From sequence record PZ445517.1: DNA of 64,000 nucleotides; one strand, given 5' to 3'. This stretch comes from a phage. The notes under the pieces were generated by a model. That model was not told where the DNA came from, ran no database searches, and worked only from the letters and a program-made list of their open reading frames with translations. The position numbers and the translations under genes are program-made. This document shows positions 1 to 64,000 of the stretch, piece by piece (position 1 is the stretch's first letter; every line of letters begins with the position of its first letter).

Positions 1-69
1 GGGCAAAATAAGGAAGGCCTGATTGCCAGCTTAAACATACTCCATCAATATCAGTTAAAATAGTAGGCT

Positions 70-528
70 TCATAAAGAGTCTCTTAATAGGTTTAACACA
101 TCAATAAATTCAGCTTCGGTTAGTATTGTATCATCTTTTGTTAGACCACTAGCCATGCTGTGCTTCAAAACTTTTCCTTTCGAGGCTTGTAATGCATCGC
201 GAAAGCCCCTATTTTGGATCGCTGCTTCAAAATATGCATTTGTGTATAATTCTTTCCACGCTGGGGAGTATCTTGAAAATGGAACTCCAAGCCAGAAGAG
301 GGTCCCACGGTCCTGAGCTCTAGCATAAGACCTTCCAGCTTGTTGGGCGGCAAGCCCAGATAACCCAAATATACGACGTTGTTGTTCAACGTTTTTCACC
401 TTGCATCCTTGGAGGAATCCTTCAAGACCTCCAAATTGAATACCATCCATAACGAAAGGCCAATGGGCGAAATTACTTAATGCGCATGATGGCCACCTAA
501 AATTGCTTCTAATCTCTAACTCAGACAT
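70..528 (-). CDS. NADAR/YbiA-like (DUF1768-like) protein in gene 30.x region
   Basis: ORF in track (70..534); first ATG at 528. Motifs LSNFAHWP and EGFLQGCK resemble the YbiA/NADAR family from memory; not verified by search. Confidence 0.4.
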   Translation of the reverse strand: MSELEIRSNFRWPSCALSNFAHWPFVMDGIQFGGLEGFLQGCKVKNVEQQRRIFGLSGLAAQQAGRSYARAQDRGTLFWLGVPFSRYSPAWKELYTNAYFEAAIQNRGFRDALQASKGKVLKHSMASGLTKDDTILTEAEFIDVLNLLRDSL

Positions 529-727
529 TTTCAATGCTTATAATTTCAACATCAGCCCAATGACCATAGCAAGGAAGACGAAATTCAACTGGCCAGTTAG
601 GGTCCTTTTCTAATATAATAGACTCAACTTGTGGTTCTTCGTGTTCATCAGTATACGGATTTTTATCTGTTACTTTATATGTGACCTTAATGTACTGAAT
701 TCCAAAAATCTTATTAATTATATTCAT
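521..727 (-). CDS. hypothetical protein (30.x region)
   Basis: 68-aa ORF packed head-to-tail with neighbours on the early strand; start approximate. Confidence 0.35.
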   Translation of the reverse strand: MNIINKIFGIQYIKVTYKVTDKNPYTDEHEEPQVESIILEKDPNWPVEFRLPCYGHWADVEIISIENV

Positions 728-921
728 ACTAATTCCTTTAATCCGTAGATAGGAGATAATTCATCGCCCATATGAAGGTCTTCATTTCCATCTACCCAAG
801 AAACAATATAAGCCTCTTTTATTTGAATACCACTCCATTTAAACGGAGGTAGAACCTTAGAAATTAATCCAGGTATACCAACTCCCTTTAATTCAACGGT
901 TTGACCTAAAAAGAATTTCAT
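724..921 (-). CDS. hypothetical protein (30.x region)
   Basis: 65-aa ORF, 4-nt overlap with neighbours typical of T4 early operons. Confidence 0.35.
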   Translation of the reverse strand: MKFFLGQTVELKGVGIPGLISKVLPPFKWSGIQIKEAYIVSWVDGNEDLHMGDELSPIYGLKELV

Positions 922-1208
922 TAGAACCTCATCTGAAAACCGTGCGATTTAACATTACCGCCATTAATATCAGAACTATTAATTTCGCGTGCAATTGAGG
1001 GATCAATGTCAATTTCACGATTGAGTTTAGCGATAGCTAGAGTATCACGCCCATTTACAGTACGAAACTCTAAAGGGCAGACTGCATTAACATAGTTTTT
1101 AATCGATTCACTGGTAGGTTGCAAATGAGCAGGAAGGTCTTTAGGCGCCTTAGAGAAAACCACTTCACAGAAATTTTTGCGGGTATCAAAATAAGTAGTC
1201 ATAAACAT
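921..1208 (-). CDS. hypothetical protein (30.x region)
   Basis: ORF 921..1259 in track; ATG at 1208 preceded by AGGAA RBS and a GGGGCUUCGGCCCC hairpin, so the shorter start is preferred. Confidence 0.4.
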   Translation of the reverse strand: MFMTTYFDTRKNFCEVVFSKAPKDLPAHLQPTSESIKNYVNAVCPLEFRTVNGRDTLAIAKLNREIDIDPSIAREINSSDINGGNVKSHGFQMRF

Positions 1209-1248
1209 AGTATTTTCCTCAGTAAGGGGCCGAAGCCCCTGTTTTATT

Positions 1249-1605
1249 TTAAATATCAAATTCGTTAAGAACTACATCAAAGATTGCTTCAAGATGCTCA
1301 GGTTTAGCTCTGTTACTCAAAATATGACGAATCCAAGTTTTAACCAGAAGCTTACGATTGACGCCATTCCAGCAAGGATGAGTCCCTAAATCACGTTGAC
1401 GAAAATCATCATCTAATGCGATTTTAAAAGAAGAACCTTCTTTCGTGATTGAAACCGTGATGCCATTTTCAAATCGCATATAAACGTAGTTAGGAGTCAT
1501 ATACTGTTCAATTTCGCATTTCGCATACTGATCCATTTTGATGTTTCCAAAGGCAGATAGTATCAATAGAACCTGCAATACCGTTAGAAACATATTTACG
1601 TTCAA
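1249..1605 (-). CDS. hypothetical protein (30.x region)
   Basis: 118-aa ORF on early strand. Confidence 0.4.
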   Translation of the reverse strand: MNVNMFLTVLQVLLILSAFGNIKMDQYAKCEIEQYMTPNYVYMRFENGITVSITKEGSSFKIALDDDFRQRDLGTHPCWNGVNRKLLVKTWIRHILSNRAKPEHLEAIFDVVLNEFDI

Positions 1606-1689
1606 AGTTGATGTAGTTCATTTTTATTCTCCGAGATGTTTAATTGCGGTACAGATATATAATATCATATCCTGTACCAAAGTAAACAA

Positions 1690-2022
1690 TTATTTTACTA
1701 CTTTCCAATGCTTCATGTCAAGTTTACCAACTTTTTTCATCTTCTCAATTAAGCGTTCGGCACGTTGGCGAGCTGTAACATAATACCATTCACCTAATTC
1801 ATTTTGTTCAATTTTTCCAACGATTACTGTATTCAATTCATAAATCCAACCAGTAAAGAAATTATGAACTTGGATTGTAAAGGTGAAATCTGTTCCCATA
1901 CCTTCTGTTGTTTCTACTTCAATAATATCACCTTCAACTGCCATTAAGAACCACATAGTTTCATCATATTTACCATTGAAGCATTTAGTTTTAACTGTAG
2001 CGTTCAGATTAATCGTTTTCAT
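1690..2022 (-). CDS. hypothetical protein (30.x region)
   Basis: 110-aa ORF directly downstream of an early promoter at 2050-2079. Confidence 0.45.
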   Translation of the reverse strand: MKTINLNATVKTKCFNGKYDETMWFLMAVEGDIIEVETTEGMGTDFTFTIQVHNFFTGWIYELNTVIVGKIEQNELGEWYYVTARQRAERLIEKMKKVGKLDMKHWKVVK

Positions 2023-2049
2023 TTTATTCTCCTTTGTTTGTGTAAGATA

Positions 2050-2079
2050 ATACTATCACAAAGGAACCGTACTGTAAAC
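2050..2079 (-). promoter_or_regulatory. phage early promoter (GTTTAC -35, 17-bp spacer, TAGTAT -10)
   Basis: Minus strand reads GTTTACAGTACGGTTCCTTTGTGATAGTAT; follows terminator 2102-2127. Confidence 0.5.
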
Positions 2080-2101
2080 AACTTTGTGCAATCTTTGGAA
2101 A

Positions 2102-2127
2102 ATAAAAAAGGACTCCCGAAGGAGTCC
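2102..2127 (-). terminator. intrinsic terminator
   Basis: GGACUCC-UUCG-GGAGUCC hairpin + U-run on minus transcript. Confidence 0.6.
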
Positions 2128-2132
2128 TCAAC

Positions 2133-2351
2133 TTATGCTTTCTGCTTACCAAAACGAGAAGCATCATCTCGAAGAACCGCACGTGCTCGGCGCATGATCT
2201 TCTCAACAGTTTGATTGATACGAGAGTTCGACCCACGCTTGTAACCAGCGCGTTTAGAATCACCAACTTTCTTTTCAACTGCTTTCTTTGCTTTAGCTTG
2301 TTTTGCCATTATAAATTCTCTTTTAAATGAAAATGCAGGACTTATTGGCAT
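2133..2351 (-). CDS. small Lys/Arg-rich basic protein
   Basis: ORF ends just before terminator hairpin 2110-2127; internal ATG (MAKQAKAKK...) is an alternative start; strongly basic composition. Confidence 0.4.
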   Translation of the reverse strand: MPISPAFSFKREFIMAKQAKAKKAVEKKVGDSKRAGYKRGSNSRINQTVEKIMRRARAVLRDDASRFGKQKA

Positions 2352-2596
2352 TGCCTGCGCAAGCCCTCAAGGGGAACATAGGTTTTGAATATTTACCGAC
2401 AGGATAACCATAAACCTCGTCAACATACCACCAAGACTTACACAGATAACACTTTTCTGACGCATGATAGTAACATTCAAGAGGTACACCATAAAACTGC
2501 CGGGGTCTTAAAACTATAATGATTCGCAAATCATTAATCAGACAGTTCGATGGCTCCTCGATTTAGCTCACACTAAGGCAGTGAATCTCCAATAAA

Positions 2597-2845
2597 TTAC
2601 TTCAGTGTTACCACAAAGTGACGAACTGCTTTTCGTGCAGCAGAAGCCAAAGGCTTAGCATATTTAAGTTCATCTTTTTCCTGAAGCTCAGCAGCTAATG
2701 CAGTTTGAGCAGGATTCAGATGTTTGAAATAACGCAGGATTTCAAGAGCTTCGGCTTCAACATCAATAGATGCGCCATAGTTTTCGTGACCATTATTCCA
2801 TGCGTTTCGTTGCAGTTCAAGAGCGTGTTGTAATTGTTTAATCAT
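2597..2845 (-). CDS. rIII: rIII lysis-inhibition accessory protein
   Basis: 82 aa; sequence and position (next to 31) match recalled T4 rIII. Confidence 0.85.
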   Translation of the reverse strand: MIKQLQHALELQRNAWNNGHENYGASIDVEAEALEILRYFKHLNPAQTALAAELQEKDELKYAKPLASAARKAVRHFVVTLK

Positions 2846-2992
2846 TTAAAAATTCTCGTTAGAGATTAAAACTCGGTAGTCACGTTCTTCTGAATTTCAT
2901 CTTCTTTCGACAGATCTCTCAGTTGTAGACTACCACATAGAATTGTTCGGTTAACTTATTATTCCGACATCCAATTCATATTATTATTTATA

Positions 2993-3328
2993 TCACTTAT
3001 AAAGACACGGAATAGCTTTATAGTGACAGGTAACGAATTTTTGTTTAATTTCTTTTGGCTGCTTAAGACCCAGAGCTACAAAAGGATGCGGAACATTTCG
3101 AATTTGACCAACTGGAAGAGAAGTCAAATCACCAACTTCGCAGAAACCTTCAGGAACATCAGGACCGACAGAGTGAACTACACACAGTTCAGGAACTTCA
3201 CCTTGGACACGTTTACCGATAATAAGTCCTGATTCTGTAACTTCTTCATCACCCGCCTGTGCGGGTTCAGAAACTAAAATAACATATTCACCGACAGCAC
3301 GAATTGGTAGCTGTTGTACTTCAGACAT
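2993..3328 (-). CDS. 31: gp31 co-chaperonin (GroES analogue for capsid folding)
   Basis: 111 aa, [19 protein letters not shown]... matches recalled T4 gp31; synteny with cd. Confidence 0.9.
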
Positions 3329-56980: not shown

Positions 56981-58009
56981 TTAAATCTTAGCATATTTAG
57001 ATAACCGCATTTTAGCCATCAACCCCTGGGCAATATTATTTTTCATATATTCCATAATTTGTTCAGGGGTTGCACCTTCCTTTCTAATCATATCATTAAC
57101 ATCTTTTGATTTCCAGGGAGATTTATCCCAAAACATAACCCTTTCTCCTGCATCAACTAATTTAGTCATTCGTTTGATAGTGTCAGGGTGACGAGGTTCA
57201 TTATCTAAAACCCACACTCGTCTATCTTTAAATGGAACAACTTCTAGGTCTAATTGACCACCTGTAATAGCTATACCATTTTCAATAAAAAGTGAATCGA
57301 TGGGTCCTTCTAGAACATATACATCACCATCTTTAACTCGTTCAACACCGTAAATTTTTGTTGCTTCAGGATAAGCTTTGATGGTGATATATTTTTGGGG
57401 AGCATCTTTCTTTAATGCACGTCCTTGAAAAGACTCAGCTTTTCCATTAGCATTATAAATTGGAATAACAAGACGAGGCTCAGGTATTTCTTTTTTATAT
57501 GTTCCTGGTGCTATACTATTAACTAATTTAGGCCATTCAGTTGTAAACCAAAGATATTTCCATTTATCCTTTGGAATACAACGAGCTTTTACGTATTTTA
57601 TAATTGGATGGTCTTCCGCCAGTTTATCTAATCTAATGCATGACGGAAGAGATTTAATTATTTTCTTCTCGGATTGTTTAGGAAGTTCTTTAGGTTTTTC
57701 TACTGGACGACTTTTACCTTTTTCTTTTCTTATTTCAAAGATATACTCACGATATAAATCAGGTTCAAACTCCTTTAAATATATTCCGATTGGTGCATGA
57801 TAGTTACAGTTATAACAATGAATATTTCCTTCATTATTATCACCGTAATACCATCCACGGGCTTTATTTTGGTCGGTTTTTGAATCTCCACAAACAGGAC
57901 ATCTAAACCGTAATTTAAAAGTTGAACTATTATTTACTTGTGTGAATTTAGGTAAATGAGCTAATGCACGGTATGCAAACTCATTATCAATCCAAGGTAT
58001 TGATGACAT
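56981..58009 (-). CDS. 61: DNA primase gp61
   Basis: 342 aa with N-terminal zinc ribbon (CPVCGDS...CYNCNYH) and TOPRIM core. Confidence 0.9.
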   Translation of the reverse strand: MSSIPWIDNEFAYRALAHLPKFTQVNNSSTFKLRFRCPVCGDSKTDQNKARGWYYGDNNEGNIHCYNCNYHAPIGIYLKEFEPDLYREYIFEIRKEKGKSRPVEKPKELPKQSEKKIIKSLPSCIRLDKLAEDHPIIKYVKARCIPKDKWKYLWFTTEWPKLVNSIAPGTYKKEIPEPRLVIPIYNANGKAESFQGRALKKDAPQKYITIKAYPEATKIYGVERVKDGDVYVLEGPIDSLFIENGIAITGGQLDLEVVPFKDRRVWVLDNEPRHPDTIKRMTKLVDAGERVMFWDKSPWKSKDVNDMIRKEGATPEQIMEYMKNNIAQGLMAKMRLSKYAKI

Positions 58010-58177: not shown

Positions 58178-58804
58178 TTAACCTCTATTCATAAAAGCAT
58201 TAAAAATTTGGTCATCAATAGAAACATTCACTTTAGACTGTTTTTCTGATGGTAATTCATATCCACATATTACAATTTTATGATCAATATCAAAATACAC
58301 AGAAGCGATATGATTAATGATGTTTTCAGTAAAGTCTAAATCAACATCAATATCTTTTTGACCACAACCCAAAGGATAAATAATGCGAGTAATTCGATTA
58401 TCTTTAACAAAGATTCCACCGACATACTCTGTGCTGCGTTTAAAGTCTACACGCCGACGAAATGAAAAATATTCAGGCTCTTTATGAGCTCGGCTCATAG
58501 GACACAACGAGTAACTAGAATAAGAGATGTCAAATCCTACGCCTTCGATATGAGCCAAAGTGTCATGATTAAACCAATTATAATCGTACGCCAAATCCAT
58601 TAGATTATAATATGTAAAAGGCATCGGATTAACATCATTGGTCACAAGCATGTAATTAGCAACTGCTATAATTTCATTATTTTTAACAAATACAAATCTT
58701 GATTGATGCGAATGACCTGGACCCGCGTTTTCACGATTAATGATATAACACTGGGCACCTTTGTATTTGTACGTGTCTTTGCACTTGTGCATTTGATAAA
58801 GCAT
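58178..58804 (-). CDS. hypothetical protein (61.x position)
   Basis: 208-aa ORF. Confidence 0.45.
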   Translation of the reverse strand: MLYQMHKCKDTYKYKGAQCYIINRENAGPGHSHQSRFVFVKNNEIIAVANYMLVTNDVNPMPFTYYNLMDLAYDYNWFNHDTLAHIEGVGFDISYSSYSLCPMSRAHKEPEYFSFRRRVDFKRSTEYVGGIFVKDNRITRIIYPLGCGQKDIDVDLDFTENIINHIASVYFDIDHKIVICGYELPSEKQSKVNVSIDDQIFNAFMNRG

Positions 58805-59097
58805 TATTCACCTACCACTTCAGCGATGATATTTTTATTATTGAAGTTTTTATCGCAATACAGAACGTAATTATACTGCATTACACCACCAGACTTAAGC
58901 TGTTTTTGTACTTCAGCTTTCATTTCAGGGCGATCGCGCTCAACGATATTCATAATATCTGCTTCAATCTGAGTTTCAACCTCAGTCTGATCTGCAGTCA
59001 TAGACCATTCGCACAAATCTTTATCATAACCTGCCATAGCAGGCTGAGCAGCACAAGAAGCTAAAGCAAAAATTGCAGCAAAAACAAATTTTTTCAT
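58804..59097 (-). CDS. sp: Spackle periplasmic protein (superinfection exclusion / lysozyme inhibitor)
   Basis: 97 aa with signal peptide (MKKFVFAAIFALASCAAQPAMA); position between 61 and 41. Confidence 0.75.
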   Translation of the reverse strand: MKKFVFAAIFALASCAAQPAMAGYDKDLCEWSMTADQTEVETQIEADIMNIVERDRPEMKAEVQKQLKSGGVMQYNYVLYCDKNFNNKNIIAEVVGE

Positions 59098-59157: not shown

Positions 59158-59460
59158 TTATTTTAAAACTTCTGCATAATCGCATGTTACAAACTGTTTC
59201 TCTAACTTGACGATTTTACGAAAGTATCTTTTGCATTGACGAATCTGTCGCTTCGTAGGGCGCACAGCAAACTTAATAAATTCCACTCGACCAAATGGAG
59301 GACTTTCTTCTGCTGGAATATCTAACACCAATTCCCACGTATCCGCAATAAGTGCTTTGAATTGTGTATTTTTCCTGATGTTATACGGAGTAGGTTTAAA
59401 TAAAACCGTATGCATATTACCCTCGCCAATCAGATTCAAAAACTTTCTTATCATTAACAA
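59158..59460 (-). CDS. hypothetical protein (61.4 position)
   Basis: 100-aa ORF. Confidence 0.4.
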   Translation of the reverse strand: MLMIRKFLNLIGEGNMHTVLFKPTPYNIRKNTQFKALIADTWELVLDIPAEESPPFGRVEFIKFAVRPTKRQIRQCKRYFRKIVKLEKQFVTCDYAEVLK

Positions 59461-59608
59461 ATGCTTTAACTAAAGCTTTATTAACTTCAGCAAGTTGTGA
59501 AGTGACCCATAGAATTTGATCTTTATCAGACACATCCATAGTGATTTCTTTGGTAAACATATTACCATTTTCAAACCAGCCAATAAAAACAATCTTTGCT
59601 AATTCCAT
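59417..59608 (-). CDS. small protein at 61.5 position (possible Dmd-like antitoxin)
   Basis: 63 aa directly upstream of gene 41; own early promoter 59638-59667. Called on size and position only. Confidence 0.35.
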   Translation of the reverse strand: MELAKIVFIGWFENGNMFTKEITMDVSDKDQILWVTSQLAEVNKALVKAFVNDKKVFESDWRG

Positions 59609-61460: not shown

Positions 61461-62616
61461 TTAACTGATCTAGGTCAGTTTCTAAATCAGCTGCTGATTT
61501 ACTTTTACTTTCTGGAGATTTAAATTTTTCAACCTTTGAGTTAATCAATTCATCAACTTCAGCTTCAACAATTTCATTGCTATCAATAGCACCTAACTGA
61601 TAAGCACGTTTAATAGCATCTCGGAATGGTTGATGCTTAAATAAAGGACCCCAGAATGTAGTGCAGTTGGTATCTTTTGCACGCCAAGATTTTTCTTCGC
61701 GAATCATCTCACCGGTTTCTTCATCAAGAAATTCACGGGCATACCAGCCATTTTTAGGTTTTACCACGAATCCTAATTCTAGAGCCATATCTAACAATCC
61801 AGAATAAGGATCGATACCACCGTCAAATTTAACATCAATAAAGAATTTACTTTTTTCTTTAACGGTACGAGATTTTTCTACATTTAGAACAAATTGATAC
61901 CCCTGAAGATCAGAACCATCTTTAATCTGGCGTTTACCGATAATGAATACGGTATCAGCCGAATACATTACGCCTGTACCACCTGTCATCACGGTTTTAC
62001 TAAACATTTCAATTGTTTCAATTGTATGGTTAACCGCAACACATGGAATATTTTTAATGCTAAAATAAGGAGTAACAATACGGAATAATGACTTCAGTGA
62101 TTTAGCACGAGTCATATCTGCCACAGATTTTTCATTCAAGGCATCTTCCGTTTCTTTCTTAGAAGCCATATTACCGATTGAGTCGATGAATACAATAACC
62201 TTTTCACCACGCTCAATAGCTTCAAGCTGATTCACCATGTCAATTTTCAGTTGTTCAACTGACTGGATTGGTGTATGAATTACTCGTTCCGGGTCAACTC
62301 CCATGGATCGCAAATAAGCTGGAGTAATACCAAATTCGCTATCATAGAATAGACAAACCGCGTCAGGATATTTGTTCAAATATGCCGCAACCATAGTCAA
62401 AGACATATTTGATTTAAAGTGTTTAGAAGGCCCTGCGAAAATAGTTAAACCAGACTGCATACCGCCATCAATCGCACCAGAAATAGCAATATTAAGCATT
62501 GGAATTTTTGTACGAATTACATCCTTTTCATTAAAGAATTTAGATGTAGTCAGTTCAGCAGTCATTTTAGAAGTGGAAGCTTTAATCAAACGGGATTTTA
62601 AATCTGCAATAGACAT
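61435..62616 (-). CDS. uvsX: UvsX recombinase (RecA-like)
   Basis: 393 aa with Walker A GPSKHFKS and acidic C-terminus; matches recalled T4 UvsX. Confidence 0.95.
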   Translation of the reverse strand: MSIADLKSRLIKASTSKMTAELTTSKFFNEKDVIRTKIPMLNIAISGAIDGGMQSGLTIFAGPSKHFKSNMSLTMVAAYLNKYPDAVCLFYDSEFGITPAYLRSMGVDPERVIHTPIQSVEQLKIDMVNQLEAIERGEKVIVFIDSIGNMASKKETEDALNEKSVADMTRAKSLKSLFRIVTPYFSIKNIPCVAVNHTIETIEMFSKTVMTGGTGVMYSADTVFIIGKRQIKDGSDLQGYQFVLNVEKSRTVKEKSKFFIDVKFDGGIDPYSGLLDMALELGFVVKPKNGWYAREFLDEETGEMIREEKSWRAKDTNCTTFWGPLFKHQPFRDAIKRAYQLGAIDSNEIVEAEVDELINSKVEKFKSPESKSKSAADLETDLDQLSDMEEFNE

Positions 62617-62693
62617 TCATTTTTTCCATAGGCATCATTATATTTTCCTCACTGGTTAAAGATAGAGTAATTATAACACAATAAATTTAGGCA

Positions 62694-63542
62694 TTAATCA
62701 ACTGCTATCGGATGAATAGCATTAAACTTATGAAATGCTTCTGATTTTTCTTTACGCGAAACACACATGCGAAGAACCTTTAATGGCTCGTCTTCTTCAC
62801 CCAACGATTTTCGTTTTTCAATATTCGATGTTTTCCAACGAGCTTGCTCTGGAAACTCTCTATTGATTTGCTCAAGCGCTCTATTATGTTTAGAATTACT
62901 ACGAATTGAACTGCACCCGCCAGGAGCTTGTGCTTTTCCAGATACAACCAGATATTTGAACAAGGCCAAATGCGGATAACCTTGATTAATTAAATTGAGA
63001 AATGCATACATATCTTCGCATAAATCAATTTTTCCATACCCAATTTGTTCTGTCGTAAGTTTTCCGAGGTCATACCATGTATTCGTGAATCCATATGAAT
63101 TTTCACGATAATTACCCCAAGATGAAGTAATTTTAAAAATTGGTAAACGAGCATGGCCATGATAATATCCGCAATCCATGGCATCCTCGACATATTGAAT
63201 CAATTCATAGAACTGTTCACGAGTTAATTGATTGACTTTATCTACACAACGACGATCATCTCTTTTTCGCATTGAACTCATACGAATAGTAGTATCATCG
63301 TCAATCATCCAAATTCGTTGACCTGCATACATATCAGTAATTGCTTTACGAGTTCCAGCAATTCCATTTACATCATCAGGAATAGTTATAATTTTAGCTC
63401 TAGACCCATAGGCATCATAATAAGCTTTTTCTTCGTGTTCACGTACTACAATATGTGGTTCATAATCAGTCGGAAACATATCAAGGGCAGAAACTGCCCC
63501 TACACGTTGATAGCTTGGAATTACGAATTGAATCATTTCCAC
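62694..63542 (-). CDS. GT-A fold glycosyltransferase in bgt slot (beta-glucosyl-HMC alpha-glucosyltransferase-like)
   Basis: 282 aa; N-terminal VIPSYQR and DxD motif (MIDDD); between uvsX and 42 where T4 has the unrelated 351-aa beta-gt. Confidence 0.55.
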   Translation of the reverse strand: MEMIQFVIPSYQRVGAVSALDMFPTDYEPHIVVREHEEKAYYDAYGSRAKIITIPDDVNGIAGTRKAITDMYAGQRIWMIDDDTTIRMSSMRKRDDRRCVDKVNQLTREQFYELIQYVEDAMDCGYYHGHARLPIFKITSSWGNYRENSYGFTNTWYDLGKLTTEQIGYGKIDLCEDMYAFLNLINQGYPHLALFKYLVVSGKAQAPGGCSSIRSNSKHNRALEQINREFPEQARWKTSNIEKRKSLGEEDEPLKVLRMCVSRKEKSEAFHKFNAIHPIAVD

Positions 63543-64000
63543 TCACCGTTATAATCTTTTTTCACAATATGAGTTTCGCCAGTATTCCACCAATGATCAA
63601 CCAAGTAAAAATGACGAGAATATACATGAAGACTTCCAACATTCCATATAATAGAACCTGCTTTATACTGACGAGTTGAATCGCCTGCATTCAAATCAGA
63701 TACTAATTTATCTAATACGTATTTTTGCCATGCATAATCATTACGGAATCCGAAGACCACGTCATTTGAGCGCATGCTTACTACTGCATTGACTTTCTTA
63801 TCACGAATCAGGTACTGTACTGTATTAGTACACATGAAATCTGACATACCATCTTTATTGTAGTCAAATTGCATGGATGGACGAGTATAAATCATGATAC
63901 CACGTCGAGAATCAGGATTTTGACCAAGTTCAGCTAAACACATATCATACTGGGCATAGTTATCTTCTGACCAAATAGCCCAACCATAATTCGAGTTAAT
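63533..64000 (-). CDS. 42: dCMP hydroxymethylase gp42 (3' portion; 5' end beyond window)
   Basis: Open frame continues to window edge; C-terminal sequence matches recalled T4 gp42. Confidence 0.9.
   Translation of the reverse strand: MNSNYGWAIWSEDNYAQYDMCLAELGQNPDSRRGIMIYTRPSMQFDYNKDGMSDFMCTNTVQYLIRDKKVNAVVSMRSNDVVFGFRNDYAWQKYVLDKLVSDLNAGDSTRQYKAGSIIWNVGSLHVYSRHFYLVDHWWNTGETHIVKKDYNGEWK

Follow-up and report, generated by a model that had tools for sequence, protein, structure and literature searches.

The open reading frame (ORF) at positions 70 to 528 of a 64,000-nucleotide stretch of phage DNA (sequence record PZ445517.1; the whole stretch is called the window below) is T-even phage gene 30.3, i.e., adfN. 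With a probability of about 94% we take it to encode a minimal, single-domain NADAR ADP-ribosylglycohydrolase that would be made by the phage during infection and would reverse the ADP-ribosylation of guanine by DarT1. AdfN is a lytic-phage orphan enzyme of an antitoxin-like kind, which chemically reverses a defence based on DNA ADP-ribosylation and leaves the toxin unbound. The identity of the gene, the NADAR fold, the three conserved active-site residues and the intact C-terminal helix were computed here; from sequence we infer that the allele with H22, R107 and M125 would behave like the 98%-identical T4 protein. The finding itself is already known from bioinformatics (2012), biochemistry (2023-2026) and phage genetics (2025), and the window contributes no discovery past this literature of 2012-2026. 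Its value lies in annotation, as most of the approximately 1,500 phage records with a 30.3 homologue label the product 'hypothetical protein' and Pfam keeps the corresponding family, PF08010, outside NADAR.

Gene identity and genomic setting

The reading frame on the minus strand is intact and comprises 152 codons plus a stop, from an ATG at 526-528 to a TGA at 70-72, as read from the sequence and the ORF list. The ORF list places the start at a TTG at 534, upstream of this ATG; the ATG at 528 was taken as the start because both the T4 annotation and the published numbering of E36 and K43 agree with it. The protein is identical to T4 NP_049816 at 149 of its 152 residues (98%), the differences being Q22H, K107R and I125M (T4 to window). 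At the DNA level, 15 differences separate it from the T4 reference gene 30.3 (12 synonymous and three non-synonymous), which corresponds to a dN/dS of 0.064. Homologues were found in 1,511 phage records, in 1,504 of them over 80% or more of the protein length, and the phages that carry them infect many genera. A search with hmmscan against Pfam matched PF08010 (Phage_30_3) at 232.4 bits (gathering cut-off 36, E=1.7e-69) over model positions 1-138 of 138. On the strength of this match, of the 1,511 phage records and of the dN/dS value, 30.3 is a real gene and far beyond a chance ORF. The coordinates of the gene, its neighbours and its main features are given in Table 1.

Table 1. Coordinates of adfN, its flanking genes and its functional motifs in the window
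Feature	Position	Strand	Remarks
adfN (T4 gene 30.3), CDS	70..528	-	152 aa + TGA; stand-alone NADAR core domain
LSNFAHWP motif, residues 17-24	457..480	-	From sequence; aligns with FSNFAAWP of E. coli YbiA (hhalign)
EGFLQGCK motif, residues 36-43	400..423	-	E36 codon 421-423, K43 codon 400-402
H123 codon	160..162	-	Ends the last beta-strand (residues 120-123, model); marks the phage NADAR (gp30.3) clade
C-terminal helix, residues 138-152 (EAEFIDVLNLLRDSL)	73..117	-	Helix 138-151 in the model; intact here
Gene 30.4, upstream neighbour	521..727	-	68 aa; ORF list and T4 annotation; phrog_2042, no function assigned
Gene 30.2, downstream neighbour, 5' end	1..73	-	ATG 71-73; remainder past the left window edge (L001:3234-4073)

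Over positions 1-1300 the window matches Escherichia phage T4_ev240 with 100% identity, and at least 80% of this segment is covered in 463 phage records. The window spans the ends of the T4_ev240 record, with window position 1 corresponding to 126291 and position 64000 to 23336. According to the annotations of LR597657 (T4_ev240) and NC_000866, the gene arc reads cd-31.2-31.1-31-rIII-30.9...30.4-30.3-30.2-30.1-30(ligase)-alt.1-alt, and genes 30.4 and 30.2 flank 30.3 here as they do in T4, T2 and RB69. The first-pass annotation, made from the sequence alone, had placed the ORF in the gene 30.x region, which is indeed where it lies: its neighbours are 30.2 and 30.4-30.9, followed by rIII, 31 and cd. 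The stop of 30.4 and the start of adfN overlap by 8 nt, a layout that would permit translational coupling, and the TGA of adfN overlaps the ATG of 30.2 in the sequence ATGA at 70-73. A dedicated 30.3 promoter was not supported by a promoter and terminator scan of positions 1-3000, which returned nine promoter-like sites against 8.9 expected. A GC-rich hairpin (AGGGGCCGAAGCCCCT) is located at 1225..1240, between genes 30.7 and 30.6; in the simple scan it was called a terminator on the plus strand only, the genes there being on the minus strand, and a terminator is annotated around this position in related records.

The T4 reference annotation also contains 30.3', an internal out-of-frame ORF that corresponds to 165..392 (minus strand) inside adfN. 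Its ATG, kept in T4, T2 and RB69, is changed to ACG in the window, and the same change is synonymous in 30.3 (N46, AAT to AAC). A TTG one codon 3' of the lost ATG could still open an ORF of 74 aa. The change from ATG to ACG weakens the case for 30.3' as a real gene.

Regarding the rest of the window, the other published anti-DarT factor, adfA (T4 gene 61.2), is found at 58181..58804 on the minus strand (tblastn, 96.6% over 208/208 residues), with spackle (58807..59097) and the primase gene 61 (56984..58009) as neighbours. As adfN and adfA are both in the window, both layers of anti-DarTG1 counter-defence are carried. A dmd homologue at 59420..59608 (minus strand) is 67% identical to T4 Dmd, compared with 97-99% for the neighbouring gp61, AdfA and Sp, and is a locally divergent anti-defence gene; Dmd is the antitoxin against the host toxins RnlA and LsoA. 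Rfam at gathering thresholds gave no matches over the whole 64 kb, and no group I intron was recognised; the T4 reference has the td and nrdB introns in the arc matching the window. In close relatives a beta-glucosyl-HMC-alpha-glucosyltransferase is annotated near the window end (62000..64000). The window suggests a phage that is T2/T6-like in places and not a canonical T4.

NADAR fold and active site

The first reading of the ORF as NADAR/YbiA-like is borne out by profile-level homology and by the match of the predicted fold. The search against PF08719 (NADAR) that had been proposed as a check was itself negative for the window protein, with no match in hmmscan even at E<=1, because Pfam holds 30.3 in a separate family and the sensitivity of a single sequence is limited. 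Likewise, a single-sequence phmmer search of the PDB recovered no NADAR (a chance-level ATP pyrophosphatase was listed at E=0.58), and PADLOC, which has no matching model, gave no match for gp30.3 or gp30.2.

A family alignment was built from 70 full-length sequences out of 94 collected homologues, reaching down to 35% identity; several of the database entries among the homologues collected are short or fragmentary, and several homologues from metagenomes bear the source label YbiA/DUF1768. Ten of the 70 aligned sequences match PF08719 individually (best 1.5e-07). Under a threshold of E<=10, the only PDB entry matched by the alignment profile was E. coli YbiA (2b3w, E=0.0039), and hhalign of the alignment against the YbiA sequence of the MG1655 record gave a probability of 93.8% (E=1.7e-07). 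An AlphaFold2 model computed on the alignment (pLDDT 93.5, pTM 0.89) has the alpha-helical core and two small flanking beta-sheets of the YbiA-like NADAR fold. Structure prediction had also been proposed as a check, and here the model does match NADAR structures: the top Foldseek matches in the PDB were 2b3w, 8bau (Phytophthora NADAR with ADP-ribose) and 8bat (Geobacter lovleyi NADAR), all remaining ones having E>1. Gene 30.3 is assigned to NADAR because these sensitive tests converge, namely the PF08719 matches within the family, the profile and hhalign matches to YbiA, and Foldseek. Later papers, including PMC11825919 and PMC11543638, credit de Souza and Aravind (2012) with the first assignment of gp30.3 to NADAR.

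The two motifs from which the NADAR reading had started, LSNFAHWP and EGFLQGCK, are both exact. Within the former, L17, S18, N19 and F20 are invariant across the family alignment. In the hhalign alignment E36 is opposite YbiA E48 and K43 is opposite YbiA K55. Among the 70 homologues E36 is conserved in all, K43 in 68 (as Lys) and H123 again in all; H123 is paired with YbiA E125 by extension of the alignment, as it lies one residue past the hhalign end point. The phage NADAR clade is defined by a His in the last strand, where YbiA-type proteins have Glu and DarG1-type proteins have Asp (PMC11543638, PMC11125620), and H123 at this position places the window protein in the clade. The equivalent Glu and Lys residues of PnNADAR (E43/K50) and of the E. 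coli C7 NADAR (E88/K95) are the residues that contact ADP-ribose, at its distal ribose and its phosphates (PMC11543638), and their conserved counterparts in the window protein are E36 and K43. An absence of catalytic residues would have spoken against the first reading; E36, K43 and H123 are all present.

The positions at which the allele differs from T4 (22, 107 and 125) are variable within the family alignment. H22 sits inside the SNFA-x-WP motif, and M125 is common to T2 and RB69. An active site changed by the three substitutions relative to T4 was considered and rejected, as these positions vary across the family. Regarding the C-terminus, a single T is inserted behind ...ATACTAAC in gene 30.3 of RB69, so that the frame ends in a TGA directly after T137 (137 aa) and the helix is lost, whereas the alleles of the window, T4 and T2 lack this insertion and read through to the end of the helix given in Table 1. 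RB69, with its truncated 30.3, is sensitive to DarTG1, and an RB69-like truncation lowers the activity of AdfN (PMC11825919).

Function, mechanism and alternative explanations

The resistance of T2 and T4 to DarTG1 was mapped to gene 30.3 by Johannesman et al. 2025, who renamed it adfN (PMC11825919). According to the same study, T4 and T2 no longer form plaques on DarTG1 hosts when adfN is deleted, RB69 is fully rescued by ectopic AdfN(T4), the substitutions E36A and K43A impair T4 AdfN, purified AdfN strips ADP-ribose from DarT1-modified DNA, no interaction between AdfN and DarT1 was found, and the thymidine-specific DarTG2 is unaffected (PMC11825919). For T-even phages adfN is both necessary and sufficient to resist DarTG1, which does not extend to DarTG2 (Johannesman et al. 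2025; Schuller et al. 2023). In vitro, the T4 NADAR hydrolyses G-ADPr but not T-ADPr (PMC11125620) and does not hydrolyse C-ADPr (PMC12945103). The idea, put forward from the sequence, that the gene might counter DarT-type toxins therefore stands for DarT1/DarTG1, which involve guanine-ADPr, and falls for the thymidine-modifying DarT2/DarTG2 (PMC11825919, PMC11125620).

In the mechanism proposed for the window allele, host DarTG1 would fire and DarT1 would add ADP-ribose to guanines of the phage DNA, which would block replication. AdfN would then cleave the bond between guanine and ADP-ribose, and replication could proceed on the unmodified DNA. By analogy with the PnNADAR structure and the mutagenesis of the E. 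coli C7 NADAR, E36 would be placed at the distal ribose and K43 would coordinate the phosphates, and H123 may fill the position of the catalytic Glu or Asp of other NADARs. The toxin would not be bound by AdfN; the DNA would be repaired chemically instead.

AdfN(T4) does not relieve uninfected E. coli of DarT1 toxicity (PMC11825919, PMC11125620) and helps T5 and Bas25 only weakly (PMC11825919). Since it works in vitro and during T-even infection, but not in uninfected cells and barely in T5 or Bas25, a helper encoded by T-even phages is implied, and the picture of an enzyme that suffices alone is incomplete. The product of the adjoining gene 30.2 might be this factor, processing freed ADP-ribose or bringing AdfN to the DNA, which we consider improbable. 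The N-terminal domain of gp30.2 contains the invariant motifs DIDGV, VAVTALG and IDDL, which we take to resemble the signature of HAD phosphatases and 5'-nucleotidases. A profile of six gp30.2 sequences matched only the 5'(3')-deoxyribonucleotidase 2jao in the PDB, at a non-significant E=0.95. There was no match of gp30.2 in Pfam even at E<=10 and no phmmer match among PDB sequences, its family PHROG 420 has no function assigned, and a few GenBank records label it 'putative phosphatase'. Gene 30.2 is present in 1,457 phage records, compared with 1,511 for AdfN, with the same distribution of host genera, and is found together with adfN in approximately 1,450 T4-like phages. In Yersinia phage JC221 and Acinetobacter phage Minot its homologue (46-49% identity) adjoins that of 30.3 or lies close by, and RB69, in which AdfN(T4) is fully active, has 30.2. 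No 30.2-like gene adjoins the AdfN homologue in Rhizobium or Ralstonia phages. The linkage of 30.2 and adfN is not strict: tens of kb separate them in Aeromonas phage Assk and in Enterobacter phage SonariX. Adjacency, co-distribution and one non-significant profile match are thus what a helper role of 30.2 would draw on, and it is a low-probability reading.

Regarding the substrate, the main target might be RNA carrying guanine-linked ADP-ribose, or DNA that other ARTs have modified, with DarTG1 being one of several; this is rather unlikely in our judgement and would supplement the DarTG1 explanation, not displace it. The T4 NADAR does reverse guanosine ADP-ribosylation on RNA in vitro (PMC11833690, PMC12945103), the AdfN authors themselves bring up broader targets (PMC11825919), and the retention of homologues by approximately 1,500 phages across many genera suggests a widespread selective pressure. 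However, the activity on RNA is lower than that of the E. coli C7 NADAR (PMC11833690), the DarTG1 phenotype of the adfN deletion is complete (PMC11825919), and no phage defence based on RNA-G-ADPr has been connected to AdfN. It is very improbable that the protein is a YbiA-like housekeeping N-glycosidase, clearing reactive intermediates of the riboflavin pathway, or has another role in nucleotide metabolism. It does share the fold and the N-terminal motifs with E. coli YbiA, and the gene arc is rich in genes of nucleotide metabolism (e.g., cd and DNA ligase), but the last-strand Glu that defines YbiA is a His in all 70 family members, trees put the gp30.3 clade closest to DarG1-type NADARs and not to YbiA (PMC11825919), and the phenotype of the adfN deletion is confined to DarTG1 (PMC11825919). 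A role in nucleotide metabolism had also been offered in the first-pass annotation, and nothing was found to support it.

AdfN might also erase ADP-ribosylation by the phage's own Alt, ModA and ModB and so tune self-modification, given that T4, T2 and RB69 all carry alt in this arc, approximately 3 kb downstream of the gene, and that an ADP-ribosyltransferase adjoins the ligase gene in Acinetobacter phage Minot. This is highly improbable: Alt, ModA and ModB modify protein arginines, and the annotation of Alt is that of an ADP-ribosyltransferase acting on protein (RNA polymerase). The NADARs tested all act on guanine-linked, and some also on cytidine-linked, nucleic-acid ADP-ribose (PMC11543638, PMC11125620, PMC12945103). 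Moreover, the closeness of alt and 30.3 reflects the conserved synteny of T4-like phages, and the homologues of Rhizobium and Ralstonia phages stand in an unrelated context. That the allele of the window is inactive or decaying in the manner of RB69 is extremely unlikely; broken 30.3 alleles do exist, as in RB69 (137 aa) and in the short database entries mentioned above, but here the frame is intact at full length, all invariant residues are present, dN/dS is low at the value given above and the substitutions fall at variable positions. Reversal of DarT1 modification remains the preferred explanation.

Comparison with known systems

AdfN(T4) shares with the protein described here the locus (30.4-30.3-30.2-30.1-30), the length, E36, K43 and H123, and the C-terminal helix; the two differ only by the three substitutions listed above.

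[quoted passage not shown] Members of that family have an N-terminal beta1-beta2-alpha1 extension, which forms a proposed DNA groove and is missing from the window protein (152 aa, compared with 219 aa), and their last strand carries Asp and not His. The DarG1 gene adjoins darT1, whereas adfN is flanked by 30.4 and 30.2 and has no ART as a neighbour. T4 AdfN is not interchangeable with DarG1, being unable to replace it as an antitoxin in uninfected cells (PMC11825919, PMC11125620).

E. coli YbiA (2b3w, PF08719) is approximately 20% identical to AdfN. The last-strand Glu of the YbiA family (E125 in YbiA) is H123 in AdfN, which places the window protein outside that family. YbiA serves the host as a housekeeping N-glycosidase, and its operon is under LexA control, whereas AdfN is encoded by the phage.

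AdfN(Bas32) and AdfN(Bas60), from T5-like phages and Vequintavirinae, are also phage orphan NADARs with anti-DarTG1 activity and specificity for guanine-ADPr. They fall into NADAR clades other than that of gp30.3 and go back to separate acquisitions (PMC11825919). Unlike AdfN(T4), they need no T-even factor and neutralise DarT1 in uninfected cells (PMC11825919).
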